Assembly: GCA_036785375.1 (NCBI GenBank)
Contig: JAWMAR010000008.1
Location: 12,586,001-12,650,000 of the forward strand
DNA length: 64,000 nt
Direction of reading: 5' to 3'
From: Leucoraja ocellata
Lineage: Eukaryota
Part shown: piece after piece, positions 5,312-51,346 of the stretch
How positions within the stretch are numbered: position 1 is the first letter of the stretch
Layout: each line of letters opens with the position of its first letter
The notes under the pieces: generated by a model
Seen by the model: only the letters and a program-made list of their open reading frames with translations
What the model was told of the DNA's origin: nothing
Database searches by the model: none
Position numbers and translations under genes: made by a program

Positions 5312-5341
5312 GTGAGAGAAACAGTGTAGACTCTTGCCCAG

Positions 5342-11712: not shown

Positions 11713-12504
11713 GTAAAGTCAGCCCCAGTGATCGGCCTACCCTTGTAACTGTCACCCTGTTCAAACTGGTACTGATGCTAATCTGAGGCAAGAAGCTGAC
11801 CGTCACGAGTCTGCGTAGGAAAAGTGGGCCGAGCGGCCTGCCTCCCTGGTGGATATTCAGTAGAACTTGTGCCTGTGTAAGGAATGAAAAGGAGGCGGCA
11901 TTGAAGCAGGGCTCAAAAATACAGGACTGAGGTCTGCGTGTAACTTTTAAGAAAACTCTTTGAAATCCATAATTTTGAACAAATCTTTGTTCATGTATTA
12001 ATATCGGAGGTTTTGTAACTGGGCGGGGTTGATGCTGTACAGGGATTTGAACAGATTAATCATCACTTAAAATCTAAATATTGCTGTATCAGGAGCCAGC
12101 AAAGGTCAACAACAAGGGGTGTTGGGGGAGTGGGCTAGTGGTGGGGGAGTGGGCTCGTGGTGGGGGAGTGGGCTAGTGGTGGGGAGTGGACTGATCCTGG
12201 GGGAAGTGGTGTTGTGGAGTGGGTTGGTTTTGGGTAGTGGGATAGCGATGTGGAGCTGGTTGGTGTTGGGGGAATGGGTAAGTGTTGGTGGGGTGGGCTG
12301 AGGGGGGGGGGGGTGATCTGGTCCTGGGGCAACTGGCAATGGGGGAGGGGGGGATGGTGTAGGGGTGGGTTTCTAAAATACCTTCAAGTTAGTCTCTGGG
12401 TCAAATCAGACGGAGATTGTGTGAGGGACCAAGGAGCTGGGAAGGGATTTGTTTTGTGTCAATAACAAGCACATTACCCTCAGTGTGTCCCTGCTTCCTC
12501 TCAG

Positions 12505-12600
12505 CATTCTGATCTTCATGGCTCTGAAGAACAGTAAAACAGGAGCTTGCCTGTCAGCGACATCTACAACTTCATGACGGAGCATTTCCCTTACTTTAAG
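12505..12600 (+). pseudogene. FOXN1: FOXN1 forkhead exon copy 1, 96 nt, frameshifted
   Basis: ACAGGAGC here vs ACAGGGAGC in copy 2. The frame reads ...[13 protein letters not shown] with TGA at 12575-12577. Confidence 0.8.
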
Positions 12601-14351: not shown

Positions 14352-14650
14352 GCCCCTGTCCCACTTTCCCGAGTTACTCACGAATTCTCCCGAGTTTTCC
14401 TCTTGATTCAAACTTGGAGATGCCAGCCGGAGGTACTCGGGGCTAGTTTTTTTACTCGTGGACATTTTCTAACATGCTGAAAAAATGTCCCGACTAAATG
14501 CCCCTAGTACCTACGGCTGGCATTACGAGTCGCTACGAAATATCTACGGACTCCTACGACCTACGGACTCGCTACGGACATTCTCCGAGTTTGAATCAAG
14601 TGGAAAACCCGGGAGAATTCGTGAGTAACTCGGGAAAGTGTGACAGGGGC
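14352..14650. mobile_element. MITE with long TIRs (GCCCCTGTCCCACT...), possibly PIF/Harbinger-like; duplicate 25805-26103
   Basis: ~65-bp imperfect terminal inverted repeats; flanks TTA / TGA. Confidence 0.75.
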
Positions 14651-14900
14651 TGACTATGAGTTCCATGTGTACGGAGTTTGTACGTTCTTCCCGTGACATG
14701 CGTGGGTTTTCTCTGAGATCTTCGGTTCCCTCCCACACTCCATGATTGTCCCTAGTGGGTGTAGGATAGTGTTAACGTGTGGGGGTCGCTGGCCGGTGCG
14801 GACTCGGTGGGCCGAAGGGCCTGTTTCCGTGATGTATCTCTATACTAAACTAAACTAAAAAGCCTGCAAACTATCAATTGCTGCATTAAGCAACTGTGAC

Positions 14901-14928
14901 CACAGATCCTATAGCGATGGGATCTTTG
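14901..14928. mobile_element. 28-bp hairpin micro-element with 8-bp TSD (duplicate 26389-26416)
   Basis: ACTGTGAC [CACAGATCCTATAGCGATGGGATCTTTG] ACTGTGAC. Confidence 0.7.
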
Positions 14929-14977
14929 ACTGTGACCGAGGATCCACTGCCCTCTGGGGATGAGAATTCCAAAAATT

Positions 14978-15177: not shown

Positions 15178-17837
15178 CCCTTCCTTCCCCCCCCCGTCCA
15201 GAGATGCTGCCTTTCCTGCTGAGTTACTCCAGCTTTTTGTGTCTATCTTGTGTATAACCGTTCGTATTAGTTTACTGTGAATGTTCGAACAGCGTCACCA
15301 CCTCTACAGGCTGCATGTGTAAAAGAGCAGCCACAACAGATTCACACCCATTTTCAATCAACATGACAAAATAAAACGGATGCGCCGGCACATGGCGCAG
15401 GGCAGAATAACCAGGGAATTATGTTAAACCCGTAGAAAGCGTGGATTCAGCCCACAACTGGAAAAATGCCAAGTCCTCAGAGCAGTTGGAGTAAATACAT
15501 CAGAACGCCTCTGAGAGTGCAAGATTGCAGTTCTGGAGTGGCAACCCAGAATGGGGCTGTTACCCACCGAGCAGCGAGGCTTAGAGAAAATCTATCAGGA
15601 TAAAAAGCAAAGCAGGCCGTGTTCAGCTTGACAACGACAGCACTCAAAAAGGAACAGCTGGTGCCTCATCCGGACCTCGGGTGCTGTCTGTGTGGAGCTT
15701 GCACGTTCTCGCTGTGACCGTGTGGCACCATGCGTCCCACTTTCCTCCCACATCCCAAAGAAGTGCGGGTTCGTAAATTAATTGACCTCTGTAAATCACT
15801 CCCTAGTGTGTAAGGAATAGTTGTAAAAGTGGCATGACGTAAAACTAGTTCTATATAGTTCTTGTAGAACTAGCGGTCGGTGTGAGCTCGGTGTTCAGAA
15901 AGACCTGTTTCCACACTGTACCTTGCAATCAATTAAAAATAAAACGTTTTGAAATTAGAGTTATTAGTGACATTTTTGTGCCAGGGTTGGGGAAAGAGGA
16001 TTGAGGTCAGACTGTAAATGTAGCGTGGATAGGAGTAGGGCTGCATTTCTGAATGGAGTCAAGGAAGCCTTTATTGCAGAAATAGTGGGGAAAAACGAAA
16101 ATTGCAGGATTAAATTGCAGGATTGCAGACTGGAAATGTTGCATTAACTAGATTGTTCTTCAGAAAATCTGGCACAGATATAATGGGTAGAATAGCTTCC
16201 TGCCTGCACTGGAACAAGATCTTGTGTTCTGAAATGAGCAAGGTGAAGCTATAATTTGAAGAGATCTAACTTCTCTGCAGTTTTTCTGCCTTTGACGAGG
16301 GAAACGTTGGGAGATTGCTGTGTTAGTTCCCTTGATGGGAAAGCCAAAAGAACTGACATCAAGCAAATAGCATATCATGGTGAAATTAATTAACGCCTAA
16401 GGCTTGCATTACAAGTTGGTCTCAAGTCAAAAGCTCAGAAAGACAACACCTTGCGCCTGACAGCAAGTTCCATCACCGTCCGGCCTGAAATGAGCTTGCT
16501 GTTTGGTTAGGTTGGGGAGGGGCTGCGAACGGCTTATGAAGTGTTTGTCAGTTTGCATAATATCGGATGACGGCAGACAGCAGTGCGGAAGCCACTGCCC
16601 TGTCTCGCCTGGCGCAGCCCCAGAGGACGATCAAGTGTTGGCAGTCAGGCAACACTGATGGGTGAGACAGTGTAGACTCTTGCCAGAGTAAGGGAATCGA
16701 GAACCAGAGGACACAGGTTTGAGGTGAAGGGGGAGAGATTTAATAGGAGTCTGAGGGGTAACCTTTTCACAATGGGGTGGTGGGTGTATGGAACGAGCTG
16801 TTGGAGAGGTAGTTGAGGCAGGGACTATTGCAGAGATAATTAGACATGTATATGGATAGAAACATAGAAAATAGGTGCAGGAGTAGACCACTCGGCCCTT
16901 CGAGCCTGCACCGCATTCAATATGATCATGGCTGATCATCCAACTCAGTATCTTGTACGTGCCTTCTCTCCATACCCCCCTGATCCCTTTAGCCACAAGG
17001 GCCACATCTAACTCCCTCTTAAATATAGCCAATGAACTGGCCTCAACTACCTTCAGTGGCAGAGAATTCCAGAGATTCACCACTCTCTGTGTGAAAAATG
17101 TTTTTCTCATCTCGGTCATAAAAGATATCCCCCTTATCCTTAAACTGTGACCCCTTGTTAGAAACATAGGACAGGTTTGGAGAGATATGGGCCAAAGGCA
17201 AGCAGGTGGGACTAGTGTATATGGGACATATTGGTCGGTGTGGGCAAGTTGGGCCGAAGGGCCTGTTTCCACGCTGTGAGACTCTATGACTCGATGACTT
17301 TGTAAAGCACGGCTCACCCTCCCACCCACCGTGGCAATCCTACCCTCCCCCCCCCCCCCAACCCCCCACCCTCTCAGCATGGGACAGGAGTTTTAGTTTA
17401 GTTTACAGATACAGAGTGGAAACAGGCCCTTTGGCCCACCGAGTCCGAGCCGACCAGCACTACACTAGTCCTATCCTATGTACTAGGAACAATTTACAGA
17501 AGCCAATTAACCTACAAACCTGCACGTCTTTGGATTGTGGAACCGGTCACCCGGAGAAAACCCACACGGTCACGGGGAGAACGTACAAACTCTCTACAGA
17601 CAAGCACCCGTGGTCCTGATCGAACCCGGGTCTCTGGCGCTGTAAGGTAGCAACTCTTGTTCACAGGATACACGTGAGGGAGCTCACCCCATGGGCTGGG
17701 GGCCAGTGGTCACTCCAAGGGTCTGGTGCCCAGCAGGGATGTGTGTCGAGCACGGGGAGAAAGTTTGGTCCATGGTACTTTTGGCCATGATGGATTGCTT
17801 GTTTTCCACAGGTTTCCTGACGAGCGGGGTGCCCCAG

Positions 17838-17960
17838 ATGTCAGCACACAGAGCAACGTGCCCCGCTCCAGCAGACGCGAGTTACCTGTCCGCACTGCTG
17901 GACGGCAAACCGACCGTGTGCCGGCGGCAGGGTGACCCGCAGCGGCAGCTTCTACACACC
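17838..17960 (+). CDS. FOXN1: FOXN1 first major coding exon (copy 2; acceptor gives exon start 17812)
   Basis: tttccacag acceptor; ATG 17838; 41 codons MSAHRATCPAP...RRQGDPQRQLLHT; donor CC|GTGAGT. Same 123-nt coding length and phase 0 as the first human FOXN1 coding exon as recalled, with a shared RQGD motif. Confidence 0.75.
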
Positions 17961-19761
17961 GTGAGTATTTCTAATCTGCACACAACTGCATTCCCAGTCG
18001 CGCCCAGCACTGCAGGAGCAGCCCTGCATCCTGCACCCTCGCACCCCCTCTCCCAAATGACCATCTCCATCCGCCGACATCCCCAACCAGCAACTCGTTT
18101 CTCTCCCCGACACCTGGGCTCCTGCATTGAGGCTTTCAGGAGCAACGCAACGCGAGCACCAAATGCTCAGACATTTAGCCAGGGCTGTAATACATCTGGT
18201 GCAGTTCATCCGATGTTCGGGACTCTACGATGCTTGCAGTTGACAACAGTTATTCAAACTAATCATTCACGTGAGCAGAAGCAGTCCAAGGGGGCAGAGT
18301 CTTGCCCGAGTCAGAATGTTGTGGAGGTAACATTCACCAGGGGGACCTGAACATATGTTGAAACCACGAAGCCAGTGTGAGGGGCACACCTGAGAGGGCA
18401 TGCACTCTCCCAGGGCACACCTGAGGATGTACACTAATGAAGGGCACACCTGAGTGAGTGCACACTGTCACAGGGCACACCTGAAGATGCACACTAACGC
18501 AGGGCACACTTGAGGATGCACACTATTGCAGGGCACGCCTGAGGAAGCGTGCACTATCGCAGGGAATGCTCGAGGGACTGCACTAATAAAGGGCTCACCT
18601 GTAGGAGTTCCCATAGAAACATAGAAAATAGGTGCAGGAGTAGGCCATTCGGCCCTTCGAGCCTGCACCACCATTCAATATGATCATGGTTGATCATCCA
18701 ACTCAGTATCCTGTACCTGCCTTCTCTCCATGCCCCCTGATCCCTTTAGCCACAAGGGCCACATCTAACTCCCTCCTAAAACATTGTCACACGGCACACC
18801 TGAGGGTGTGCTCACTATTGCAAGGCACACCTCAAAATGCACACTAACGCAGGGCACACTTGAGGATGCACACTACCCCTGGGTACACCACTATAGTGGT
18901 TTTACGTAAGAGTAATTGCTCCTAAATCGGCCTCTCACAGTGTGGTGACCTGTACATATCACAATGATGTGACGGCTCACTACTTGGTTCTAATCAATTG
19001 GATTAAGAATGTAATATGCAGAGTCTTCTCTGTCAACAGCCTCACAATGAGCTGATGATAGAATGCATCCTTTGCAACACAGGGGCACAATGTACAGTAC
19101 AAATTACACCTGCCGCTGCATTTAAAGTGCTGCAGGAATAGTTCAGCAAGTTCAAATACTTGGGGAAGCAAATCAGATAATCCAGTAAAAGAGAATCAAA
19201 CAGGTTCAGTGAAGGTAATTGCCCTCGGAGCCAGGGAGCCAGTGCAAGGCCACTGCTGGTCAACACACACACCTTTAGCCAATGAAGCTGTAAATCATAT
19301 TATATTAAATCCTACAGATAGACACTGATAGATTGAGTCTGAAAAAGGGTTCCGACCCAAAACCTCACCCATCCTTTTCCTCCAGAGATGCTGCCTGACC
19401 CGCTGGATTATTCCAGCACTTTGAGTCTACCTTCGGTGTAAACCAGCATCTGCAGTTCCTTTCTACACACTTAATGTCAATCTTTCTGCTTTAAAAGTTG
19501 GAGTGCAGAGGGAAGCGATGAGAATTCAAGTTGCAGACACAACTGCAGGAGACGTTGGCTGGAAAGTGAATTGTAGATGTCTAGGGTGACCTGTGACACC
19601 TAATCTCCAGGGATAGATTTCCACAAGTGGTTCCAGGCCATCAAAGGATAAGGTTGCTCGACTTGGAATGCAGTATTCCCAAGGGGCAGATGACTGACAA
19701 TCAATTTACTTCCTCAATTACAGCCTGGATAAGATGACACATCATTGGGAGGTCCCTGTGT

Positions 19762-19801
<40 letters not shown>

Positions 19802-20023
19802 GTTTACTAATGTCTTGTAAACCTCTTCTGCACCTTATCCGAAGCCGCTACATCCTTCTATGATGTACTGACCAGAACTCTACACAATACTCCAAACGTG
19901 GCCTGTCCACAATGTGTATAAAGCTTCACCATGACTTCCTGACTCTTGTACTCTGTGCCCCGACCGATGAAGGGAAGCTCTCCGTACGCCTTGTTTTCCA
20001 CTCTATCTGTGCTTCTATTCCAG

Positions 20024-20161
20024 GGCCAGAACTGCAAGGATGAGAATGAAGCGCTGGTGGGCTGTGGGTTTGAGCAGACTGCCCTGAGCTGCCCTGAGCT
20101 GCTGCACTACCGCTCTCCAGCAATGCATGATTACTGCCCCGCTCCTGCTCTGCTGCAGCAG
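20024..20161 (+). CDS. FOXN1: FOXN1 N-terminal region exon (copy 2), 138 nt
   Basis: ctattccag acceptor, CAG|GTATGC donor, phase 0/0. GQNCKDENEALV...LLHYRSPAMHDYCPAPALLQQ resembles the YQPPLQHMYC..HQ exon that precedes the pre-forkhead exon in mammalian FOXN1. Confidence 0.75.
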
Positions 20162-22793
20162 GTATGCCCACTGCAGGGACCAGCACCAATGCAGCCATCT
20201 CGGCCCATCGCACGGGCACCAAATGATCAGATAAAAGTTGCAGCCTTGCCTGTGGCTGGTAATGGCAGTGCCCAATTGTTAAACATTAGAGCAGACACAA
20301 CAATTTCTAGTCAAATATCAGGTGCAATACTGGGAAAAAGTGTACAATTACTGCAGGCAAAATATGCCCAACACCAGAGGGATCATGTAACTATCTGTAC
20401 ACTGTAATTGGCTCAATTGTAATCATGTATAGTCATTTTGCTGACTAGTTAGCAAGCGTCAAAAGCTTTTCACTGTACCTCGGTACACGTGACAATAAAC
20501 TAAACTGAATGAATTAAGGTGTTAATCAGTTCTCCCTTCTGAAACGGGTGCAGAATTTAGTTTAGTTTTGAGATACAGCGTGGAAACAGGCACTTCAGGC
20601 CACCTAATCTGCACCGATCTCCGCACACTAACACTATCCTACACACTAGGGCCAATTTACAATTTTTACCCAAGCCAATTAATCTACCAACCTGTACGTC
20701 TTTGGAGTGTGAGAGGAAGCCAGAGCATCTGGAGAAAACCATTTAGGTCACGGGGAGAATATACAAACTCCATAGAGACGGCACCCGTAGTCAGGATCGA
20801 ACCCGGGTCTCTGGCGCTGTAAGGCAACATCTCTATCGCTGCACCACCGTGCCGACCCTACTGCTTGGACATATATTGAGGGGCTGACATCTGGCTAAAG
20901 ACCCCTGCCTGAGATCCGTCAGCAACCAGGCAAGCTCCAACTAGTACTTCGAGCTCTACCGCAACCCAACGCCTCCGGTCCTAACAGCAATGGCCGGACA
21001 CTGTCTAGTGACAAAGTAACATTTGCCACTTGCCTTAATGTGAAGCACCTCCCTCTGCCTCCCACTCCCCAGTACCCTGGCTGAGAGCCCTGGTGTCTTG
21101 TTCTGAATCTAACAGGTGAAGTGAATCCCAACCAGTATATACCCAGAGCTTACATGGATGAGATGAGATGACCCATCCCAGTCTGCTGATCAATAGGTGG
21201 CCATCTGGGTTCCAATGCTTCCCCCATGGGTGTAGGACTGGAGACCCAGTGTGTTGTACACAGAGCTACAGGTGTGAATTACATGATAGATGTCATTAAG
21301 CTGAAAAGAATGCAGAGGGCGCTGCCAAGACTGGAGGGCGTGAGCTATAGGGAAAGGTTTTGCACACAAGGCCTTTATTCCTTGGAGCACAGGAGGCCGA
21401 GGTGCAATCTTATATAATCATGAGGACATTGGCAGGGTGAATGCAGAGGAAAATCAGGAACTAGAGGGCACGGATTTAAACTGTGAGGGGAGAGATTTAA
21501 TAATAAGCTGAAGGGCAACATTTTCACACACAAGGTGGTGGGTATATGGAATGAGCTGCCAGAGGAGGTAGTAAGGCATTTGGACCACTACATAGATGGG
21601 AAAGGTCTAGAGGGCTATGGGCCAAACACAGGAAAATGTGACTAGCTTAGATGGGGCACCTTGGTCTTCATGGCTGAGTTGGGCTCAAGGTTCTGTTTCC
21701 GTGCTGTATGACTCTATATCTCCTTGAGAGTGTGTTCCACTGACAAATAGAAACATGGAAAATAGGTGCAGGAGTAGGCCATTCGGCCCTTCAAGCCGAA
21801 TGGAATACTATCATGCTGGCATGAACCTGCCACTGAACTAGGAATCAGCAGAACACAGCGATGGAGCTGCTTGAGCTGCTGCCTCACAGCACCAAGAATC
21901 CGGGATCGATCCTGACCTTAGGTCCTGTTTGTGTGGAGTTTGCACATTCTTACTGTGACTGCATGAGTTTCCTTTGGGTGCTCCGGTTTCCTCCCACATC
22001 CCAAAGACCTGCGGGTTTTGTATGTTCATTGGCCTCAGTAAAATTGCCCTTGGTGTGTAGGGATTAGACGCAAAAGTGGAAGCGTGTAGAAAAAGTGTGA
22101 ATATGATCGATTGTCAGCATGACTCGGTGGGTTCAAAGGCCTGTTTCCTTGCTGTATCATTCAATGCAATTCAATCCAATACTGTGTTTTCTCTCAGATA
22201 CATGTTTAGACTCTGGGTTTATAGGAGCAGAAACAAGTTGCTTTTATGTATTGCCTTCCTGAGGAGAGTTATCAAATAAGATTTGACCAACCCATGTAAA
22301 AAGTATCAGGATATATGGCCGACCAAACCAACGTGCAAACGTTTACGGAGGATCATAAATGAACACGATGGAATCTGGATATACCAGAGTCAAGGACAGA
22401 GGACAGGTCTTGGGGGATATGGGGCCAGATCAGTTTACAGACATAGGGAGTGAAGAGGTCACTGAGGGAATTGAAAACAAGAATGAGAACTGTACAAGTA
22501 TTGATTTTACAAGTTTGGGAGCTAGAGAAGATCAGGAAACTGGGGAATACAAGATATACGGGAGCTGGATAGCTCAGACACAAGCAGCGGAGGTGGTTGT
22601 GGTTGGGGAAGATGTAAAGGCTGGGTTATTGAGTGTGAGCTTTGCAAGATGAGAACAACTTTACATTTCAAATTAGCTTTACATGTGAGGATGTTGAAAT
22701 GATAGTTCCAGAGACATACTGGTCTATGCAGATCCAAGTTAGTCTTTGATTTCAGTCCAGACTTTAACTGTTGAACTTGTCTTTGTTTATCAG

Positions 22794-22921
22794 TACCCTG
22801 CTATGACGGGTTACTCTGGGGGTATCCCACCGACTGTCCCGTACTCTTACCAAAGGATTGCACCTCACGTTAACCAGGATATGCATCACCTGCTCTACCC
22901 CAAGCCCATCTACTCATACAG
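22794..22921 (+). CDS. FOXN1: FOXN1 exon entering the forkhead domain (copy 2), 128 nt
   Basis: tttatcag acceptor, AG|GTAAAG donor. YPAMTGYSGG...YSYQRIAP...LLYPKPIYSY(S), the characteristic FoxN1/4 forkhead start. Confidence 0.93.
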
Positions 22922-23329
22922 GTAAAGTCAGCCCCAGTGATCGGCCTACCCTTGTAACTGTCGCCCTGTTCAAACTGGTACTGATGCTAATCTGAGGCAA
23001 GAAGCTGACCGTCACGAGGCTGCGTAGGAAAGGTGGGCCGAGCGGCCTGCCCCCCTGGTGGATATTCAGTAGAACTTGTGCCTGTGTAAGGAATGAAAAG
23101 GAGGCAGCATTGAAGCAGGGCTCAAAAATACAGGACTGAGGTCTGCGTGTAACTTTTAAGAAAACGCTTTGAAATCCATAATTTTGAACAAATCTTTGTT
23201 CATGTATTAATATCGGAGGTTTTGTAACTGGGCGGGGTTGATGCTGTACAGGGATTTGAACAGATTAATCATCACTTAAAATCGAAATATTGCTGTATCA
23301 GGAGCCAGCAAAGGTCAACAACAGGGGGT

Positions 23330-23655
23330 GTTGGGGGAGTGGGCTCGTGGTGGGGGAGTGGGCTAGTATTAGAGGAGTGGATGGTGGTGGGGGAGTGGGC
23401 TAGTGGTGGGGAGTGGGCTAGTATTAGAGGAGTGGGTGGTGTTGGGGGAGTGGGCTAGTGGTGGGGAGTGGGCTAGTGGTGGGGAATGGGCTAGTATTAG
23501 AGGAGTGGGCTAGTGGTGGGGAGTGGGCTAGTGGTGGGGAGTGGGCTAGTGGTGGGGAGTGGGCTAGTGGTGGGGGAGTGGGCTAGTATTAGAGGAGTGG
23601 GCTAGTGGTGGGGAGTGGGCTAGTGGTGGGGAGTGGGCTAGTGGTGGGGAGTGGA
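23330..23655 (+). repeat. G-rich 17-18 bp VNTR (GGGGAGTGGGCTAGTGGT)
   Basis: Many tandem units; only ~4 units at the matching site 12123-12190. Confidence 0.9.
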
Positions 23656-23965
23656 CTGATCCTGGGGGAAGTGGTGTTGTGGAGTGGGTTGGTTTTGGGT
23701 AGTGGGATAGTGATGTGGAGCTGGTTGGTGTTGGGGGAATGGGTAAGTGTTGGTGGGGTGGGCTGGGGGGAGGTGATCTGGTCCTGGGGCAACTGGCAAT
23801 GGGGGGGGGGGGGGGATGGTGTAGGGGTGGGTTTCTAAAATACCTTCAAGTTGGTCCCTGGGTCAAATCAGACGGAGATTGTGTGAGGGACCAAGGAGTT
23901 GGGAAGAGATTTGTTTTGTGTCAATAACAAGCACATTCCCTCAGTGTGTCCCTGCTTCCTCTCAG

Positions 23966-24062
23966 CATTCTGATCTTCATGGCTCTGAAGAACAGTAAAA
24001 CAGGGAGCTTGCCTGTCAGCGACATCTACAACTTCATGACGGAGCATTTCCCTTACTTTAAG
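23966..24062 (+). CDS. FOXN1: FOXN1 forkhead exon, 97 nt, intact (copy 2)
   Basis: ctctcag acceptor, AAG|GTAAGA donor; [32 protein letters not shown]. Confidence 0.96.
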
Positions 24063-26950
24063 GTAAGATTCCACCCCTGCATCTTGATCGGACAAAACAG
24101 CTTTAACTAACTACATGTCTCATTGAGCAAAGCACTGAGCTAGTCAGGACCTGCTACCACCGGCAGCTCTGTGTAGCACTTCCAAGGACTCAAGCAGTGA
24201 GAGTGGGTGCAACATCCACAACCACCTTATAATTGTGAACGACATTGAAATCCAAGCTATTTACTTACAAAAGATAGACACAAAAAGCGAAACGAAAAAC
24301 GAAAGCCAAAAAACAGAAACGTTACCCATTCCTTCTCTTCAGAGATGCTGCCTGTTCCGCTGAGTTACTCCAGCTTTTTGTGTCGATCTTCGGTTTAAAA
24401 CAGCATCTGCAGTTCCTTCCCGCACATTTTATTTACTTACAAAAACAGTTCCGCTGAGTGAATTGTGGTAGTTTACATGGAGGGAATGAAAGCTCCGGGG
24501 AGTTCCTGTGTCTGGACAACCTGTCATGGGACGATGCGAAGAGCTGGGAGGAGATGAGTGAGATTAACCCCCCACCCCCCACACACCAATAACAACCACT
24601 GTTGACGATGTTATACATCTTATTGTGGATCCAAAAGCATAGATCAGACAAAAAGAAGTAATTAATGATCATGTTCAGGGAATTAAGAAATCCGATCCCA
24701 TACAACTGCAGTTATATCCACTATATGGGCCACAGATAGGGAGAATTCATAGTCTTTTCCCCAGAGTAGGGGAATCGAGAACAAGCAGTCAAAGGTTACA
24801 GGTGAGAGAGGAAAGATAAGAACCTGAGAGATAACTGCTTCACACAGAGAGTGGTGGGTATATGCGAGGAGCTGGCAGATACAGTGGTTGAGGCAGGTAC
24901 TTTAACATTTAAAATACTTTTAATTTGTGTACCATGAATAGGAAAGGTTTAGTAAGTCAAGTATAGGCAAATGGGACTAGCTTTAATGGGCATCCTGGTC
25001 GGCATGGACGTGTTGGGCCGAAGGGCCTTTGTCCATGCTGTAAGACTCTATGACTCAATCTGATGCATCATCGTACATCTAACTGTCAGGTGGGCAGGTA
25101 CAATACAGTCATATTCCTTGCCTTTATATTGCAAACCTGTTCCACAAAAGATGCTTCTAGTCAATAGTTTATGCTGAGTTCCCGTCATTCCACGCCCCCC
25201 CCCCCACCCCCCTGTATCATTGCACGATCCTGCTGCAGGAACCCCCTTGAGTGTTTAGCTCTGCAGCCTCGCATTACACTATCAACAAGCTGCAGTGACC
25301 CTGTGTGACCAGCAGGTAGTGCTCAATCACCACACGCAGCACGGAGAACGTCCAGCCCCAAACCCCTCACAGCGCCTGAGAACTGGGTTCGATCCTGACC
25401 TCAGGTGCTGTCTGTGTGGAGTTTGCACGTCCCCCTTGTGATCATGGGTGATCCTGTTTCCTCCCACATCCTGAAGACGTGCAGGTTAATTGGCTGCTGT
25501 AAATTTTCCCTGTTGTAAAGGGAGTGGGTGAGAAAGTGGGATAACATGGAACTGGTATGAACGGGTAATGTGAACAGGCCCTGTCTCCATGCCGTATCTT
25601 GCAATCAAATCAATCACTCAATCTTTGCCAAGGGCAACATGAAACTGCAGAATATTTATCTCCTGGGGTCTCCTGAATCTACACCTGAGCGCTGACCCCC
25701 CTGTACCCAGGCCACTGCACAATTATTAATGAATGCTGTGCTGACCACATGTCTTCTGATTCCCTTAATACCCTGGTCGGTACGGACTTGACACGGTGTT
25801 ATTAGCCCCTGTCCCACTTTCCCGAGTTACTCACGAATTCTCCCGAGTTTTCCTCTTGATTCAAACTTGGAGATGCCAGCCGGAGGTACTCGGGGCTAGT
25901 TTTTTTACTCGTGGACATTTTCCAACATGCTGAAAAAATATCCCGACTAAATGCCCCTAGTACCTACGGCTGGCATTACGAGTCGCTACGAAATATCTAC
26001 GGACTCCTACGACCTACGGACTCGCTACGGACATTCTCCGAGTTTGAATCAAGTGGAAAACCCGGGAGAATTCGTGAGTAACTCGGGAAAGTGTGACAGG
26101 GGCTGACTATGAGTTCCATGTGTACGGAGTTTGTACGTTCTTCCCGTGACATGCGTGGGTTTTCTCTGAGATCTTCGGTTCCTTCCCACACTCCAAAGAC
26201 GGACTGATCTGTAGGTTAATTGGCTTGGTATGATTGTCCCTAGTGGGTGTAGGGTAGTGTTAACGTGTGGGGATCGCTGGCCGGTGCGGACTCGGTGGGC
26301 CGAAGGGCCTGTTTCCGTGCTGTATCTCTATACTAAACTAAACTAAAAAGCCTGCAAACTATCAATTGCTGCATTAAGCAACTGTGACCACAGATCCTAT
26401 AGCGATAGGATCTTTGACTGTGACCGAGGATCCACTGCCCTCTGGGGATGAGAATTCCAAAAATTCTGAGTGATAACATTTATCCCATCACAATCTCAAA
26501 CAGCTGACGCCTTCTGCCGAGAATGATGCCTAATCCTAGACCTCGCTGGAAGCATCCTCCGTGTATCTGGCCGGCCTGTCGAGAAAACCCTGGAAGAAAT
26601 GAGATCTCCGGTTTTGCAAAGCTCCAGAGAACACACACAATCTTTCCTCATGGAGCCTGCTATCCCTGGGACCAGAAGATGGACACAAAATGCTGGGGTA
26701 ACTCGGGGGGGGGGGGGGGGGGGGGGGTCAGGCAGCATCTCTGGAGAAAAGGACTAGGGTCGGAACCCTTCATCAGCCCCACGGCACGTCCCAACCCGAA
26801 ACGTCACCTCTTCCTTTTCTCCAGAGATGCTGCCTGACCCGCCGAGTTACTCCAGCATTTCGTGCCTATCTTCAGTATAAACCAGCATCTGATGTTCCTT
26901 CCTACGCATTTCCCCTGGCACCAGTCCAGGGAACCTGCACGCCCTCTGTG

Positions 26951-27133
26951 TTTAAGAAGGAACTGCAGATGCTGGAAAATCGAAGGTACACAAAAATGCT
27001 GGAGAAACTCGGCGGGTGCAGCAGCATCTATGGAGCGAAGGAAATAGGCAACGTTTCGGAATCGAAACGTTGCCTATTTCCTTCGCTCCATAGATGCTGC
27101 TGCACCCGCTGAGTTTCTCCAGCATTTTTGTGT
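26951..27133. mobile_element. Palindromic PLE-derived insertion
   Basis: ~75-bp inverted arms; 18-bp direct repeat ACCTGCACGCCCTCTGTG at 26933-26950 and 27134-27151. Confidence 0.8.
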
Positions 27134-28842
27134 ACCTGCACGCCCTCTGTGGCAGCTGCACCTTTTTAAGATTAGGAGCCCCAAACTGAATTTAGTGTTC
27201 CAGGTGTAGTCTCACCAAAGCCTGCAGTTACATGCCCAGGCAACTCCAACATCGCCTCCAACCACCTGACACTAGCCACAGGCGCATGAGGGTGTGAATG
27301 AGTATTTTCCACCTAGAGTCATCGTGGAGAATTCAGGTTGGGGGATGGTACAATCCTGCAGCAAAATATAAAATGAGATCTCCGGTTTTGAGACGGTATT
27401 AGATATCTTAGTGAGTTTATATGTGGATTAGAGCCAAAAAGCCCATCGGCCCATCACATCTATGCCAACTATCTTCATCAGCCCATGTACCAACCTTCAA
27501 TGCGTTGGCAAGACTATTGGGAGTCACCTCTTAATATCTAAACACCTCTGAACCATTGTGTGAGAGTCTGCCTTCACCACCACCTACTAGAAGGGCCGAG
27601 ATGGCCTGTTTCCGTGCTGTAATTGTTATATGGTTATATGGTTACATTCCAGATTCCAACTATCCTCTGGGTGAAAAGATTCTTTCTCAGATCCTGTTTA
27701 ACCCACTTACATCGTTTCCTGCATCCATGCCATCTAGTCTTAGATACCTCTGATTTGGAGAAATGTTTCTAACTGATCACGCTCTCCACATGTCTCTCAT
27801 CGCGATGTATATCAACCTCCACCTCAAGCTTTCTCTACTTCATGGAAAACGAACCCAGACACAGTGGGTGGAAGGGTCGGTTACTGCGCTGTTTGTCTCC
27901 TTGACCACCCAGCACATTCTCCCTCGAGTCACTCACGGTCCTATGTCGAAGTTTATCGCTGGTCGTATATCGTAGTCACTGGATGTAATTCCCGATCTGC
28001 ATTCCCAACCTTGGTGTGGGAGATCTTCATCAGAAACACTGCAGCGGTTCCATGGGCAGGTCACGCCCATCTTCACTAGGGCAGTAAGGAGTGGGCAATG
28101 ACTGCCAGCAACACCCAGATCCCCAGAAAGGAATGTATAAGACCATCTATCTATGAATAATAAGACCATCTATCTTAATGGGAGCCCATCTCCAAGCCTG
28201 ACTACCAGCATTAACCCACAGCCCATAAACCACAGCCCAAAATGTGGGGGGGTTGCAGGTTAATTGGCCTCTACAAATTGCCCCGTGTGTGTTGGGAGTG
28301 GATGATAAAGTGGGATAACATGGAACTAATGTGAATGGATGATCAGCATGGACTGGGTGGGCTGAAGGTCCTGCTTCCATGCTGTATCAATCAAACTAAA
28401 ATCTCCATCACTGGCCCCCATTTTCATGACATGGCATCAGTGCCAAAATACAGAGCCAGCCCTCACCCAGACTAGATGAAGGCAGTGTGGAGGTGGTGAC
28501 TGAGGACTTGTTGGCCGGCAGTCATGATGCCTGAGTCTGTGGAATTCTCTGCCTCAGAGGGCGGTGGAGGCTGGTTCTCTGGATGCTTTCAAGAGAGAGC
28601 TAGACAGAGCTCTTAAAGATAGCAGAGTCAGGGGAGAAGGCAGGAATGGGATACTGATTGTGGATGATCAGCCATGATCTCATTGAATGGCGGTGCTGGC
28701 TCGAGGGGCTGAATGGCCTACTCCTGCACCTATTGTCTATTACTGACCGTCACTTTGAGCCCCGGGTTCTGCCGACAATGGCTCGGGGGATAGGCAGAGC
28801 CTGGTGAAGTAAAGACCACGGTGTGTGCCCTCGTTGTTGCAG

Positions 28843-29050
28843 ACCGCACCGGACGGCTGGAAGAACTCCGTGCGACACAACCTCTCCCTGAACAAGTGCT
28901 TTGAGAAAGTGGAGAACAAGTTTGGGGGCAACTCGAGGAAGGGCTGTTTGTGGGCCCTCAACCCCAGCAAGGTGCAGAAGATGCAGGAGGAGCTGCAGAA
29001 GTGGAGGAGGAAAGACCCCGCAGCAGTCAGGAAGAGCATGGCCAAGCCAG
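28843..29050 (+). CDS. FOXN1: FOXN1 forkhead exon, 208 nt
   Basis: ttgcag acceptor, CAG|GTGAGT donor; [26 protein letters not shown]...[10 protein letters not shown]...[17 protein letters not shown]. Confidence 0.97.
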
Positions 29051-29195
29051 GTGAGTGGGGAGCCCACGGTTGCCAGCCTTGCCAGTGTTGCTGCTGGGCT
29101 CCATCTCCTCAGGAAGTCCCTCAGGTCGAGGGTGACCTGCTCCAACTCCAGTCCGTGGGCTCCAAGGCTGCTGATTAATTCATGTTATTATTAGA

Positions 29196-32097: not shown

Positions 32098-32826
32098 GTA
32101 AACCCCAGCCTCAGGCTGATCACACTCCTGGATGAAAAAGGCTTGGGTTCAAATGTTGAGAGAGATGTGGTCACTGTGGGTTAACAGTTTCAAGCTGAGG
32201 ACAGCCTTCCTCTGATGCTTCAGTTGATGATTATATGCACACGCACATATACACACATTTACATGCACACACATACAAGCACACACATACACATATACGC
32301 ATGTACACATACACACACCAGGTGTTGAGTTCAGATCCTGCCCTTTGTTGTTATCCAATGTTTATCTCAACGTGAATCTAAATCGCCCTGGTATACAAGC
32401 GAGTTCTTGCTCTTCATCATTGGGATTCAAGCTCGTATATGAATAACTCCAATGAATAAGGTTGCTGACAATGCCAAAATGGGAGGAGTGCAGTGAGGAA
32501 GGCTGCCAGAAGATACAGTGGCGTGTAGACCAGTTGCTGAGACTGGTGGAAAAATGGCAGATGAAGTTTAATGCAAGTAAATGTGAGGTGTTGCACTCGA
32601 GGAGTGGAGTCAAGGGATATGGGGAGAAGGCAGGCACGGGTTATTGATAGGGGATGATCAGCCATGATCACAATGAATGGCGGTGCTGGCTCGAAGGGCC
32701 GAATGGCCTCCTCCTGCACCTATTTTCTATGTTTCTATGTTAGGAGGTTGAATGCAAGGGGAGATTTTACAGTTAATGGCAAGACCCTCAACAGCATTGA
32801 TGTGCAGAGGGATCTTGAAATACAGA

Positions 32827-33160
32827 TTTTGCTTGGGCAGCTTACAACCCAGCGGTATGAATATTGATTTCTCTCATTTCAATTAACCCCTGTATTCCCT
32901 TTCTCTCCGTCCCTCCCTCACCCTCGTTGCCTTGCCAGTTTCACTGTTGCCCCTCATTATCACCTCTTCCACAGCCACCAATGGACCATTGTGGGCTCCA
33001 CCTTTCCTTGGTCACCAGGGCCAGTTCTGATTTGTTCTGTACTTTTTCCAAACCTCTAATTTCCCTCTCCCAACTGTGTCTGATGAAGGGCTACCTATTC
33101 ATTTGCTCCAGAGATTCTGCCTGACCCACTGAGTTACTCCAGCACTTTTTGTCTACTTTG
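32827..33160 (+). mobile_element. Penelope-like element 3' end (second copy)
   Basis: FCLGSLQPSGMNIDFSHFN*, then the same UTR as 193-605, GTCTGATGAAGGG and the shared tail CCAGAGAT.CTGCCTGACCC.CTGAGTTACTCCAGC. Confidence 0.7.
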
Positions 33161-42400: not shown

Positions 42401-43488
42401 CACTAATCCCTGTACAGGATCTCCCCAATCCCTCACCCTCTGCTCACAAATACACCAACAAAACAGCCCCTTCGGCCCATCATATCTGTGCCAACCATCA
42501 ACCAACCGTGGACATTAATCTAATTCTATTCTTCCCACATTCCCGTAACCCCAACTCTACCACTCACCTACACGGGGGGGAGGGGGAGGGTCATTACAGC
42601 AGCTGATTAACCTACCACCCCACACGTCTTAAGGATGCGAGATGACTCTGGAGCACCCTGGAGAAACAGGGAGAACATGCAGACTCCACACAGGCAGCAC
42701 CCAGGTCAGGATTGCACAGCAGCCACTGGACAAGGTGCCCAGACTGGTCTGGTCACTGCAATGCCAGAGGCACAGCGAGGGTAAGGGGGGAGGGGGGGGT
42801 CTCATCATGCACAGCACAACTCCCGTGTGGGACTACAAGCAGGAATAGCGGGTAAAGCATAGAACTGATGAACAGGCCATTCTGCCCACAAAGTCCATGA
42901 TGAACATGATGCAATATAGAACAGTACAGCACAGGAACAGACCCTTTGGCCCACATTACCTATGGGGACAATATACCAAGTTAAACTAATCCCCTCTGCC
43001 TGCATGAGATCCATATCCCTCCATTACCTGCTTATCCATGTGCCTATCTAATGGCCTCCACCACCATCTTGGCAGTATGTTCCAGGCACCCCCTTACATC
43101 TCTTTTAAACTTTGTCCCACTCGCCGTAAAGCTGTGCCGTCTAGTCTTTGTGTAGTCAAGGGTTATTAATAGCCAGTGCTTATCTGTGAGATTTCCATCC
43201 AGGGGAAAAGATTCCGACTGTCCACCTCTCTGGGTCTCCCATCATTTTACAAACTTCTACCAGGTCTCCCCTCAGCCTCTGATGCTCCAGAGAAAACAAT
43301 CCACGTTTGCCTAACCTCTCCTTATACCTAATACTCCTTAATCCAGGCAGAATTCTGGTAAATCTACTCTGCACCCTTTCCGAAGCCTCTAACCTTCCTG
43401 TGATGGGGTGACCAGAACTGCCAACAATACTCCAAATACAGCGTAGCCAGAAGTCTTGTAGACATGCAACACGACTTACTGACCCTTT

Positions 43489-43712
43489 GCCCCTGTCCCA
43501 CTTAGGAAACCTGAACGGAAACCTCTGGAGACTTTGCGCCCCACCCAAGGTTTCCGTGCGGTTCCCGGAGGTTTTTGTCAGTCTCCCTACCTGCTTCCAC
43601 TACCTGTAACCTCCGGCAACCACCTGCAACCTCCGGGAACCGCACGGAAACCTTGGGTGGGGGGCAAAGTCTCCAGAGGTTTCCGTTCAGGTTTCCTAAG
43701 TGGGACAGGGGC
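43489..43712. mobile_element. MITE with ~85-bp TIRs and the same 14-bp terminus GCCCCTGTCCCACT
   Basis: Near-perfect inverted arms; inserted in a CR1 fragment. Confidence 0.8.
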
Positions 43713-43835
43713 ATTATTACTCAATGCTGCAAATAATCCAAGCATGCCACACACCTCCTCTACCACTTGTGTTGCCACTTTCTGTGAGCTGCAGAATTGG
43801 ACCCCAAGTTCCCTCTGTACATCAATACTAGGAAG

Positions 43836-43857
43836 CAAAGATCCTATAGCATCTTTG
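43836..43857. mobile_element. 22-bp hairpin micro-element with 8-bp TSD
   Basis: CTAGGAAG [CAAAGATCCTATAGCATCTTTG] CTAGGAAG. Confidence 0.75.
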
Positions 43858-44689
43858 CTAGGAAGGGTCTTGTCACTAGACACTTCCGAGTGAGTTAAGG
43901 CTTTGAGCAGGAGGATGCTGGTCTTGGTTCGACTACTGCTTGTGGGCAGAGTTCCCATTTCACCCTCTGAGTGCTGATGTGACAGCAGCAGAGAGGGGGT
44001 GCAGACAGGTTTGCACCCCGAGTCTTTGAGTTACAAACAGGTAGGTTTTTCTTCAGCAGAAATCTGGCAGGCAGCATTCACAACCAGCGATGGGAGAGCT
44101 GCAGAATGTCGATCAGCCAGATTAGAGTGGTAGCAGGGCACAAGGCATCACTCTCACTGCCCGCCCGGCCTTGCTGCAACAGTCGAGTGCAGCCTAATCT
44201 CACAGATAAGCACTGGCTATTAATAACCCTTGACTACACACAGCTTCACCCAGCCTCTCTCCCCTGTGCCTGCCCACTCCCTGCGTCTGATTGACCACTG
44301 ATTCAACTACCAGCCGGGGACTAGTGCGGGCTGCATCCATCCCCCCCCCCCCCCTCACCTCCTCACGAGGAGGGGGCTCCCTCCGCCCTCGGCTAGGGGG
44401 AGATCCCCTCCCTTCACAACCCATTACAAAAACCACGCCGGTATTGGCCCTGCTGTTAACCCCTTCCCTTCTGACACCACTGAAATCACAAAGACTATGC
44501 TCTGGCATGCTAACGTTTAGTTTACCAAACCAGACACCAGTGATGAGTGCACTCCGGTCATGATGTAAATACATTCTGAAGAAAGGTCCTGACCCAAAAT
44601 ACATGCTATCTATCCCTTTCCCTCCACAGATGCTGCCTGACCTGCTGAGTTTATAGACACAACATGTAAATAGATCTTCAGCCACCAAA

Positions 44690-44941
44690 TCTATGCCAAC
44701 CATTAATCACCGATTCACACACTAGTTCCATGTTATCCCACTTTCCCATCCACATTAGGGGCAATTTACAGAGGCTAATTGACCTAAAAATCCACACATC
44801 ATTGGGATGTGGGAGAAAACTGGAGCACCAGTCACAGGGAAAACATGCAAACTCCGTACAGACAGCCCTCGAGATCAGGATCAAATGCAGGTCTCTGGTG
44901 CAGTGGGGAAGCAGCTCTACCCGCTGCGACACTGTGCCCCC
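44690..44941 (-). mobile_element. V-SINE
   Basis: Reverse-complement SINE motifs. Confidence 0.65.
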
Positions 44942-45484
44942 ACAATGAAGAACAGTGTCGTCTGGCATGTTTTGTTTTACTCACTACTTTCCAGCATCTA
45001 CAGTCTCTTGTCTCTATAAACACAGTCTGCCTTGTGTAGTTGGGAGGTCGATGAGCATTAGTATTCCAGTGGCCACACTTGGAAAAGCAGCTCCTGCACC
45101 AATCCTGACACAAGGAGCCTGCGTTTGCCCGAGCAGTGAAGGCCTCCATTCAGTGGTTCCACTTCCACTGAGGCAGAGGCACAACCAGAGGGACCCAACC
45201 ACAAAATACTGCAGATGCTGGAAATCCAAAATAAAGCCACGAACACTCAGCAGGTCAGGCAGCCTCTGCGCAGGTGGAATCATAACCAACATCTCATATC
45301 AACAAGCTGTCACCAGGTTCAGGACAAATTAGAAACTGATTACTTTTTCAGTTGCCCAGAAGAGGGAGAAGTGGAGAGGAAAAGGGAATGTTTGTGAAAG
45401 GGCAGAGATCATGCAAGGCAGGAATGCCCAAGTGATGCTGGCTCAGAGAGGGCAGTGCAGGCTAGTGGAAATCCAAACTCCTTC

Positions 45485-45757
45485 AGCGGTAGAGTTGCTG
45501 CCTTACAGCGCCACAGACCCAGGTTTGATCCTGACCACGGGTGCTTTCTCCACAGAGTTTGCACGCTCGCCTGTGGCTGTGAGTTTTCTCTTGGTGATCT
45601 GATTTCCACCCATGTTCCAAAGATGTGCAGGTTTGTTGGGTAACTGGCATCTGTGAGTTATCCCCAGAGTGTAGCACAGAACTAGTGTATGGGTGATCCC
45701 TGGGTGACGTAGACTCGGTGGGTCAAAGGGCCTGTTTCCACCCTGTATTGCTAAAAC
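45485..45757 (+). mobile_element. V-SINE
   Basis: CAGCGGTAGAGTTGCTGCCTTACAGCGCC head and AAGGGCCTGTTTCC tail. Confidence 0.65.
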
Positions 45758-45997
45758 AAAACCTTTTTTGGTAAAATCAGATTACTCCATTACCTGGTTG
45801 CTCATAGAACACCACTACCATTGGGATGAAGATGGAGCTTCCCAGGGTCACCACCAGCAGTGGTGATTCCGGTAACTCCATGCCTTCTGTTATCCCAAGT
45901 TGTGTGCCGTGGGACCCCTCCGTTAATTAACATCAGACTCTCCAACATGACACAACACTTACCTCAACTGTGACCTATAGACTCCCTTTGACATGTT

Positions 45998-46326
45998 ATA
46001 GGAGTAAAATTAGGCCATTCAGCACATTAAGTCTACTCTGCCTCCTAATCCCATTCTCCTGCCTTCTGCCCCTAACCCTTGACACCCGTTCTTATCAAGA
46101 ATTTGTCTATCTCTGCCTTAAAAATATCCACTGACTTGGCCTCCACAGCCCTCTGTGGCAATGAGTTCCACAGATTAACTACCCTCAGACTAAAGAAATT
46201 CTTACTCACCTCCTTTCTAAAAGAGTGCCCTTTAATTCTGAGTTCATGACCTCTGGTCCTAGACTCTCCCACCAGTGGAAACATCCTTTCCACATCCTCT
46301 CTATCTATGCCTTTCATTATTCTGTA
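45998..46326 (-). mobile_element. CR1 LINE 3' fragment
   Basis: ESRTRGHELRIKG...RVVNLWNSLPQRAVEA. Confidence 0.8.
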
Positions 46327-46489
46327 ATAATTGGTTACAATAATTAACTACAGGTTTACTTGTACGAGTATTGTGCTTATTGATTTTGTAATCCACCAGT
46401 ATAGACCTGTCCCCACCAGAACTGTACCCCAGTGTTATAGAGACAGACCCATCCCCACCAGTACTGTATTCCAGTGTTATACAGTGAAC

Positions 46490-47445
46490 TGCTGGCCAAA
46501 TGGGCTGAGGAATAGCAAATAGAGTTTAGTGCAGATAAGTGCAAGGTGTTGGATCTTGGTAAGTCAAAGCAGGGCAGGACTTTCAGAATAGATGACAGGT
46601 GAGTGTTGTAGAGCAGTGAGATCTAAGAGTACAGGTACATAACTCCCTGAATGTCGCCTCAAACTTAAGGCAGCTTTCGGTGCATTGGCTTTCGTTAGTC
46701 GAGTATAGGAGTGGGCAGTTATGTTGCAGTTGTACAATATATTGGTGGGGCCACATGTGGAGTATTGTGTTCAGTTTTGGTCACACTGCTATAACAAGGA
46801 TGGCATTAAGCTGGGAAAGGGCAGAGAAGATTTACGAGGATGTTGCAAGGTAACACAAGAGCCTGAGCTATGGGGAGAGAATGGGCAGACTTGGACTTTA
46901 TCCCTTGGAGCGCACAAGGCTGTGGGGTGATCTTATAGAGGTGTATAAGATCATGAGGGCAATAGAAAGGGTGAACGCATTGTCTTCTACACAGGATAGA
47001 GGAATGAAGAACCAGAGAACAGAGGTTTAAAGTTAGAAGGGAAACATTTAATAGGAACCTGAGGGGTAACTTTCTCCACACAGAGGGTGGTGGGATATGG
47101 ATTCAGCTGCCAGAGGAAGTAGTTGAGGCAGGTGCAACATCATCATTTAAAAAAACATTTGGACAAGTACATGGATAGGAAGAGATAGACACATTCCTGA
47201 TTACAACGGGCGTCAAGCCTTATGGGGAGAAGGCAGTAAAATGGGGTTAGGAGGCAGAGATCAGCCATGATTGAATGGTGGAGTAGACTCGATTGGCCAA
47301 ATGACCTAATTCAACCCCTATAACTTGTGAAGGTTTAGAGGGAAATGGGCCAAAGGTGAAGGTGAGATTACTGTAGGACGTATTGGTGGGCATGGACTAG
47401 TAGGGCCAAAGGGCCTGAATCCACACGGTATGATTCCATGACTAT
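46490..47445 (+). mobile_element. CR1 LINE fragment(s)
   Basis: MLQLYNILVGPHVEYCVQFWS and CR1 3' UTR motifs. Confidence 0.8.
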
Positions 47446-47599
47446 ACTGTACCCCAGTATACAGTGACAGACATGTCCCCACCAGTACTGTACCTCAGTG
47501 TTATTCAGTCAGGGGGCGTCTGTGCTTTAGTATTATTTTTTTTTTGCCCTACAATCTTACACCTGGTTCTTTCGAGTTGTTCCTTAGCCTCGTCCCACC

Positions 47600-48560
47600 A
47601 GTGCCGCCCTGAGCTGACCCGCTTGAGCCCGAGCCCGAGCCCGTGCCCAGCACGGTTGGACTAACCCTGGTCTCCCCACCGAGTGACGGCCCCCGTTCGC
47701 CCTGTGTCCCGGGGGCCAGTCCCCGGCCCGCACTCCTCACCCTGGGTGATTCTCTGTAGCCCCAGCACGTCGTCCGGGGTCACGCTCTCCTTCTTCAGCA
47801 GCTCCTCCTCGGTGGTCGCCCACACACCCTCCGGCGCCGACTTCACCTTCATCACGACCGCCTCGGCTTTCTGGGCGGCGCTGCTCAGGGTCCTGGTGCC
47901 CGAGAAACTCATGTCCGAGAGCCGGCCCGGAGCAGAGCCTCAGCCGCTGCCTTCGCTCCGGACTCCGAGCTCTTCAGCTCCGGGCTCCGCTGCCCGGGAC
48001 CCGCTCCTTCAGCCCAGGCTTCGCTGCTTCCCGCAGTTCTCCCTCCGTCCTCAACACCGCTCCCGGCTCTGGACTCCGCTCCCCCGGTTCCAGTCTCTGC
48101 TCCTTCGCTCCCGGCCCCGCTCCACCCGGTGCGGGCTCCTCCGCTCCCCCTGTCCCGGTGCCGGCGCCGCCGCCGCTTCTCTCCGGAGCGGCTGAATGTA
48201 TCCAGCGCGGAGCGCAACACTGCAGCGGGAGGGGGAGTCACGCACCTTTCCATGTCAATACCACCCTCCTCCCTCCACAAAAAAATATCCATTCAAGCTG
48301 CCGCCGCTCGGTTCTCGTACACTGGGCGAGGGAGGAGGGGGTCGCAATTGCCGGCTCCCCGCCGATAAGGCGCCGCAGTTTTTTCCCCTCTTTTTGGCCC
48401 CACTCCCACAAACCCCGAGCTGGGCCAGGATGGTGCAGCCCGCGGGCAGCCGCTTCATTCACAAATAGGGCTTGGCGGGACCGGGGCCACGGTTCCAGCG
48501 CGGTGGGTGCAGGGTGCCCAGTGCGTGTAGGGTGCTGTGGGTGCAGGGTGCCCGGTGCTG
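47600..48560. promoter_or_regulatory. CpG island over UNC119 exon 1 and promoter
   Basis: Visibly high GC and dense CpG compared with the flanks; spans the UNC119 ATG and upstream region. Confidence 0.8.
47741..47912 (-). CDS. UNC119: UNC119 exon 1 (172 nt)
   Basis: MSFSGTRTLSS...MKVK...TTEEELLKKESVTPDDVLGLQRITQ; donor G|GTGAGG; lies in a CpG island. Confidence 0.92.
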
Positions 48561-48923
48561 TGGGTGCAGGTGTAGGATCTAGCCCCTTGATCCATGCCCA
48601 CATTTGACGGGCACAATCTGCCAGCATCGATGGGAATGTGCGGATAATTAAATGGGATAAATGTGGGATCGGTGCAAAGGGTTAGCACGGATTCGGTGGG
48701 ATGAATGGCCTATCTCAATCATCTCATTAACAGTAAGCTGCCAATTCGGAAGAAAAAAATAGAATATACATGGACGAAGGAAGTAATTAAAATTCACACC
48801 ACGATTACAACCTCCTCTTGCCCAGCCATTTGCCTGAAAACAGTTTCCAATTAATCTCGGTGCAGATATAATCACTGTATCTCCGTGCTCCCCAGTTCCG
48901 GTTGCATGGCCAGGGATTAGCAC

Positions 48924-48968
48924 CAAAGATCCTATAGCGGAGATCTTTGATAAGATATAAGATCTTTG
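48924..48968. mobile_element. 45-bp hairpin micro-element with 8-bp TSD
   Basis: ATTAGCAC [CAAAGATCCTATAGCGGAGATCTTTGATAAGATATAAGATCTTTG] ATTAGCAC. Confidence 0.75.
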
Positions 48969-49226
48969 ATTAGCACTACCATGGCCCTCCGCTTTGGGAT
49001 TGACTCCCTCAACCTTTCCACCCCCTCTCGCTTGTTTCTTCCTTTACGGTGCTCCTGAGTCCCCGTCTCTTTGACCAGGCTGGTCTGGATTTCCACTGGA
49101 ACATGAATGTTAAACTCCAGTGCAGTTTAGGAAACGCTGCCTTGCCATTAGTATCTGGGTTCCAGTCAAGATGTTACCCTGAAGTCCTGATAACTATTGT
49201 ATCCAAAGGTCATTCTACCTTACGTG

Positions 49227-49400
49227 AAGCTAGACAAAAATGCTGGAGAATCTCAGCGGGTGAGGCAACATCTATGGAGCGAAGGAAATAGGCGACGTTT
49301 CGAGTCTCGACTTCGCTCCATAGATGCTGCCTCATCCGCTGATTTTTTCCCTGCATTTTTGTCTACCTTCCATTTTCCAGCATCTGCAGTTCCTTCTTAA
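49227..49400. mobile_element. Palindromic PLE-derived insertion
   Basis: Same arms (GCTGGAGAA.CTCAGCGGGTG...CTATGGAGCGAAGG) and tail CCAGCATCTGCAGTTCCTTCTTAAAC. Confidence 0.7.
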
Positions 49401-50531: not shown

Positions 50532-50603
50532 AAGTGCTCTGGTGGGATAACTGACTGGAGACACAAGGTGCTGGAATCTTGAACAAACCACAAAGTGCTG
50601 GAG

Positions 50604-50788
50604 GTACACAAAAATGCTGGAGAAACTCAGCGGGCGCAGCAGCATCTATGGTGCGAAGGAGATAGGCAACGTTTCGGCCCCCGAAACGTTGCCTATCTCC
50701 TTCGCTCCATAGATGCTGCTGCACCCGCTGAGTTTCTCCAGCATTTTTGTGTACCTTCGATTTTCCAGCATCTGCAGTTCCTTCTTAA
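50604..50788. mobile_element. Palindromic PLE-derived insertion
   Basis: Long inverted arms; 14-bp TSD ACAAAGTGCTGGAG (50590-50603, 50789-50802). Confidence 0.8.
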
Positions 50789-51195: not shown

Positions 51196-51346
51196 GTTAC
51201 ACAAAAAAGCTGGAGAAACTCAGCGGGTGCAGCAGCATCTATGGAGCAGCATCTATGCTCCAAAGATGCTGCTGCACCCGCTGAGTTTCTCCAGCTTTTT
51301 TGTGTAACCTTCGATTCTCCAGCATCTGAACTTCCCTCTTAAACAC
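51196..51346. mobile_element. Palindromic PLE-derived insertion inside a SINE
   Basis: 15-bp TSD TATGGATGATCGATG (51181-51195, 51347-51361). Confidence 0.8.

Follow-up and report, generated by a model that had tools for sequence, protein, structure and literature searches.

A total of four short hairpins, located at three independent sites within a 64,000-nucleotide stretch of the Leucoraja ocellata genome (the window), look like the scars of an excised transposon that left both of its tips behind, in the manner of the fruit-fly P element. The copies are 22, 28, or 45 bp long and each is surrounded by exact 8-bp direct repeats. They are probably immobile footprints left on excision of what we infer to be a transposon of the P type whose staggered cut is long. 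The feature is real, and most likely P-type footprints, a product already known in kind, are seen here in a natural setting that is new for them, a skate genome.

Copies in the window and their surroundings

The coordinates and sequences given in a preliminary description of the window were confirmed at all copies (table 1), and the DNA transposon origin with target site duplications (TSDs) of 8 bp proposed there is supported by abutting direct repeats of exactly 8 bp in 4/4 copies. A motif-blind scan (8-bp direct repeat, 6/7 inverted end bases, 14-60 bp) recovered these four copies and nothing else from the window; 60 Markov shuffles returned 0.12 on average and never more than 1. A family-guided scan (2-80 bp, one repeat mismatch allowed) returned the same four copies and one 4-bp match at chance level, with zero matches of at least 14 bp on 40 shuffles. 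The copies at 14901 and 26389 display a single-base difference and, because both sit in an ~11.3-kb duplication, the loci are counted as three and not four, in agreement with the earlier count.

Table 1. Positions of the short copies and of surrounding features in the window
Feature	Position	Strand	Details
Locus B, left 8-bp TSD	43828..43835	+	repeat CTAGGAAG
Locus B, remnant (22 bp)	43836..43857	.	15 nt left end + 7 nt right end
Locus B, right 8-bp TSD	43858..43865	+	repeat CTAGGAAG
Locus A including both TSDs	26381..26424	.	28-bp remnant 26389-26416; 16 nt left + 12 nt right; repeat ACTGTGAC
Duplicate of locus A including TSDs	14893..14936	.	28-bp remnant 14901-14928; repeat ACTGTGAC; not independent
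Locus C including both TSDs	48916..48976	.	45-bp remnant 48924-48968; repeat ATTAGCAC
FOXN1-like gene of little skate	6593-34997		exons mapped by tblastn
~11.3-kb tandem duplication	3841-14977 and 15197-26433		200-N gap between; 95-98% identity

An exon product of 152 residues in the window shows 100% identity to FOXN1-like from Leucoraja erinacea (53% in Pristis and 45% in Mustelus). Locus A is intronic in this gene, between the exons at 23973-24065 and 28837-29058, and loci B and C are located past the last matched exon. The duplication carries four FOXN1-like exons and is probably an uncollapsed haplotype or an assembly artefact; an assembly duplicate is likely because an exon is frameshifted in the first copy (near 12544). 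An 18-nt G-rich minisatellite occupies 23353-23682; its counterpart near 12144, in the duplicate, is far shorter.

Several other repeats were observed in the window. A MITE-like element of 226 bp (43488-43713) with 86-nt inverted arms of 99% complementarity and no clear TSD is located 122 bp upstream of locus B. A common dispersed repeat forms fold-back hairpins at 26984-27137, 50602-50756, 49230-49375, and 51197-51305, with arms of at most 75 nt and short centres that are all different, and its direct form is found at 3296, 61602, and 61708. These fold-backs may be Penelope-like termini.

Target site duplications and sequencing runs

The 8-bp TSDs were produced on insertion of a cut-and-paste transposon, as shown by the repeats themselves and, for locus B, by the register of an empty site. 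A related repeat at 32681-32900 on the reverse strand contains 8 nt where locus B contains 38 (8 + 22 + 8), and only 4/8 letters of this 8-mer are the same as in the TSD of locus B. Four of the 24 listed runs (X1, X3, X17, and X19) were compared over positions 43720-49200, with the number of missing letters computed from the contig piece table. Across locus B, X19 is short by 30 letters, X3 by 37, and X17 by none, and X1 has no listed piece; the 30 letters missing from X19 equal the element plus one TSD by arithmetic, a figure that does not place the gap within the contig. Across locus C, X17, X1, and X3 are short by no letters and X19 by 15, and since an empty site would require a deficit of 53, locus C is regarded as common to 4/4 runs. 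Locus B appears to be absent from two runs. An empty site is supported for locus B (related repeat and, by arithmetic, the gap of 30 letters in X19). Because locus C is common to all four runs and locus B apparently absent from two, scar formation would have been repeated over time.

One X3 contig fuses a different repeat to exactly position 48924 and, because this joint coincides with the first base of locus C, a further copy elsewhere is suggested. Read depth exceeds the background in both bins that contain elements, a value that is not at base level and does not give a copy count, the bin of locus B also containing a host repeat. Run X1 contains 25 extra letters somewhere within 48679-49200 and differs at base 48958, inside locus C.

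The TSDs of the three skate loci carry T at position 2 and A at position 7 in 5/6 positions (P = 0.005), which corresponds to the NTNNNNAN target preference. This preference is common to hobo, a hAT element, and P, and TSD length is 8 bp in P and 7 bp in 1360 (PMC3276498, Table 4). The CA...TG termini with terminal inverted repeats are present in the skate copies as in the P superfamily. The hAT label of the preliminary description does not follow from 8-bp TSDs and CA...TG ends, since P elements have both (PMC3276498, PMC2895639).

Junctions and probable excision products

In each copy, one end contributes no more than 17-19 nt and is fused to no more than 12-15 nt from the opposite end; the joint shows microhomology or filler of templated type, and the hairpin shape arises because two inverted ends are joined. 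Scored against the longest end seen, none of the six skate arms is longer than 19 nt, and five of them do not exceed 16 nt. With respect to a limit of 17 nt, the left arm of locus C measures 17-19 nt and that of a copy outside skates (see below) 18-20 nt, both depending on the assignment of shared bases. A search of the window with a 15-nt end query (at most 3 mismatches) identified eight ends, all of which (8/8) belong to the short copies; no longer copy of this end and no intermediate copy was found in the window at this threshold. Scars thus outnumber full elements by 3:0, an imbalance that counts against the footprint reading. No full-length parent was found in the window or at the matches in viral, prokaryote, and metagenome sequences described below. 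A Pfam scan of 13 frames (12 of the 57 long frames in the window and one of the copy outside skates) identified a transposase in 0/13. A family search of one bacterial genome and 14 controls for the RNase H domain of P-type transposases was negative and carries no information on the parent.

The lengths of loci A (28 bp) and B (22 bp) fit self-complementary registers of the end (2 and 6 nt, respectively), the length of B being the register of a 6-nt self-complementary word. Both can be read as palindromes with one mismatch each, which is the next left-end base. The register match is weak because 7/14 even lengths between 12 and 38 are self-complementary registers. Locus C is composed of 17-19 nt of the left end, filler, and 12 nt of the right end. 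The filler repeats the right end together with two bases from the start of the right TSD, and a 9-nt word across the right end and the start of the TSD occurs twice in the locus. Because the filler includes bases of its own flank, formation in place is indicated.

The preliminary description offered two options, a micro-MITE or the recurrent collapse of a larger element to its fused termini, and the second fits these junctions. A micro-MITE of 22-45 bp that is mobile as a unit would account for the inverted pair of ends and the perfect TSD seen in each copy, and it is highly improbable because all three centres differ. No centre is shared between independent copies (3/3, or 4/4 if the copy outside skates is counted), and MITEs are recognized by many copies of the same interior and size, whereas centres and lengths differ in 3/3 loci here, a small sample. 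The own-flank bases in locus C point to formation in place rather than mobility, and the fly P element requires internal binding sites beyond its terminal repeat (PMC7776569).

The layout, size, and junction type of the skate copies fit the repair products of the fly P element. The Drosophila P transposase makes a 17-nt staggered cut, an unusual length that distinguishes P among characterized cut-and-paste transposases (PMC7776569), and when flies deficient in recombination repair the donor site, the product reads TSD, a portion of the first tail, a portion of the second tail, and TSD (PMC2895639). Among the P{wa} excision isolates in Table 1 of that study, our hand count gives both 8-bp copies kept in 63/66 and 20-44 bp between the TSDs in 39/66; the junctions display 1-3-nt microhomologies and templated insertions. 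The skate copies share with these footprints the 8-bp TSD on both sides, the CA...TG termini, short remnants of both ends, a size of 20-45 bp, microhomologies, and templated filler (PMC2895639). Unlike the fly footprints, which are laboratory repair products, they are natural, found in a vertebrate, and common to several runs; in addition their end sequence is different, their left arm could be as long as 18-20 nt, and their parent transposase is putative. The skate copies work like a P footprint, and their membership in the P superfamily is putative; transposases of that superfamily combine a THAP domain with an RNase H-like domain that carries a GTP-binding insertion, and its elements have subterminal repeats and internal sites for the transposase.

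In the mechanism that we propose, a cut-and-paste transposon would first insert and generate the 8-bp TSD. Its later excision by a long staggered cut like that of the Drosophila P transposase would leave 3' tails on the chromosome, each made of ~17-20 nt from a terminal repeat. In the germline these tails would then be trimmed and end-joined where short words are self-complementary, in some cases with the kind of templated filler that polymerase theta produces, to give the junctions described above. The left arm is possibly longer than 17 nt, and therefore either the cut would be unlike that of the fly enzyme or one or two bases would be filler.

An alternative that we judge unlikely starts from a hAT element, or another one with 8-bp TSDs, that underwent internal deletion or aborted gap repair: clean excision is followed by the copying back of a few terminal bases from the sister chromatid and by end-joining. 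The hAT terminal motif YARNG fits 6/8 ends, the exceptions being the left ends of locus A and its duplicate, which carry a cytosine at position 3. For P elements, Yuan and Wessler are said to have provided a finer five-letter terminal motif in 2011. The alternative draws on the YARNG fit (PMC3014272), on TSDs that agree with the NTNNNNAN motif, which suits hobo equally well as P (PMC3276498), and on the acceptance of aborted gap repair with microhomology joining as a source of MITEs (PMC3814204). Such repair can shrink any element of this kind (PMC3814204) but does not account for the fact that none of the six arms is longer than 19 nt: it predicts broad lengths, and under a crude uniform-breakpoint model six arms this short have a probability of 4e-6 for a 300-bp parent and 3e-3 for a 100-bp parent. 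The window is also without the intermediate copies expected from it. With respect to excision residues, mariner leaves 2-3 nt, piggyBac leaves nothing, and hAT excision forms hairpins on the flanks (PMC3878927), whereas the element ends are kept and the TSDs intact in the skate copies, an argument valid only for direct excision products. Overall, the skate copies resemble non-autonomous hAT elements and MITEs in their 8-bp TSDs, a start compatible with YARNG in 6/8 ends, and NTNNNNAN targets and differ from them in that the listed hAT families are at least 288 bp long with similar copies (PMC3014272, PMC3878927).

Other superfamilies, such as Zisupton and Novosib, also generate 8-bp TSDs. The same footprint mechanism might be driven by a non-P transposase from one of these, with an uncharacterized cut and tails of 18-20 nt, a variant that we hold to be quite improbable. 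Past its first two bases, the skate end does not resemble the P ends of fly and zebrafish, and the arms in locus C and in the copy outside skates may exceed 17 nt, both of which suit this variant; the former is no evidence against P because P ends vary among families. Against it, the review consulted describes such a cut for no characterized group other than P (PMC7776569).

For the reading as P-type footprints, vertebrate precedents are found in zebrafish, where mobility was shown for P-like elements that have 8-bp TSDs (PMC7776569, PMC10983969). The zebrafish Pdre elements are like the skate copies in their vertebrate host, 8-bp TSD, and CA...TG ends; the 13-bp terminal repeat of Pdre2 differs, and the deleted Pdre copies described are not footprints (PMC7776569, PMC10983969). 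Zebrafish THAP9 excises in cell assays with flanking deletions that are larger than those of the fly enzyme (PMC10983969), which counts against the P-footprint reading. The Mutator-like element Muta1 has TSDs of 8-9 bp and is unlike the skate copies in its long terminal repeats and mostly precise excision, for which its authors infer cutting outside the repeat (PMC5225508).

Copy number, earlier reports, and a copy outside skates

Three loci per ~52.5 kb scale to ~1e5 copies in a skate genome of 2.2 Gb (PMC10115646) if the window is typical (Poisson range ~3e4 to 4e5), an estimate that is biased upward because the window was chosen for containing these elements. The high copy number suggested in the preliminary description is plausible. 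No published description of this end sequence was found, nor any of fixed P-type footprints in a vertebrate, in a literature search that lay outside most subscription journals and Repbase, and an earlier description of the end is possible. Passages retrieved from two skate genome papers make no mention of P elements or such scars (PMC12361510, PMC10115646); their supplements may list DNA transposon classes.

The skate scars may record how such transposons cut and how the vertebrate germline repairs the break. If arm length is capped, natural footprints would be in-genome vertebrate evidence for the long staggered cut, so far shown with the fly enzyme (PMC7776569), and they would offer a large set of independent junctions, all formed by germline end-joining at one defined break. 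In annotation, short TSD-flanked hairpins would be better read as scars than as tiny MITEs.

Matches to the end in viral contigs (12, 2, and 0 matches) and in prokaryote genomes (2 matches) were treated as chance, with a TSD in 0/16 and, for the first 12 viral contig matches, also no inverted partner. Among the metagenome matches, 3/4 had neither a TSD nor an inverted partner. The remaining one, in contig L015, contains the same 19-nt end followed by a 13/14 inverted copy that forms a short hairpin (chance occurrence of the inverted copy ~1e-5 per match), then a 3-nt stretch complementary to the left flank, followed by a 7/8 copy of the left 8-mer. The direct repeat is only 7/8 and displaced by 3 nt, which counts against the footprint reading, and because of the extra 3 nt, fold-back synthesis from one end may have been involved. 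The contig carries an immunoglobulin-domain stretch (Pfam E 3e-4, under the curated cut-off; eukaryote clusters), and the element is the sole repeat that it shares with the window, whereas 12/12 3-kb pieces of the window do share repeats. For these two reasons, L015 is probably non-skate animal DNA.

It can be tentatively suggested that natural excision scars number in the tens of thousands in skates, that they come from a transposon of the P type or of a class yet to be described, and that its 19-nt end is shared with an invertebrate through horizontal transfer or strong conservation. The tails would perhaps be 18-20 nt rather than 17 nt long, and the scars would constitute an unannotated class of repeats and a fossil record of cleavage geometry and of end-joining in the vertebrate germline. 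In L015, the element copy is abutted on its left by a tandem 9-mer duplication (2944-2961), and a related word lies past its right end.
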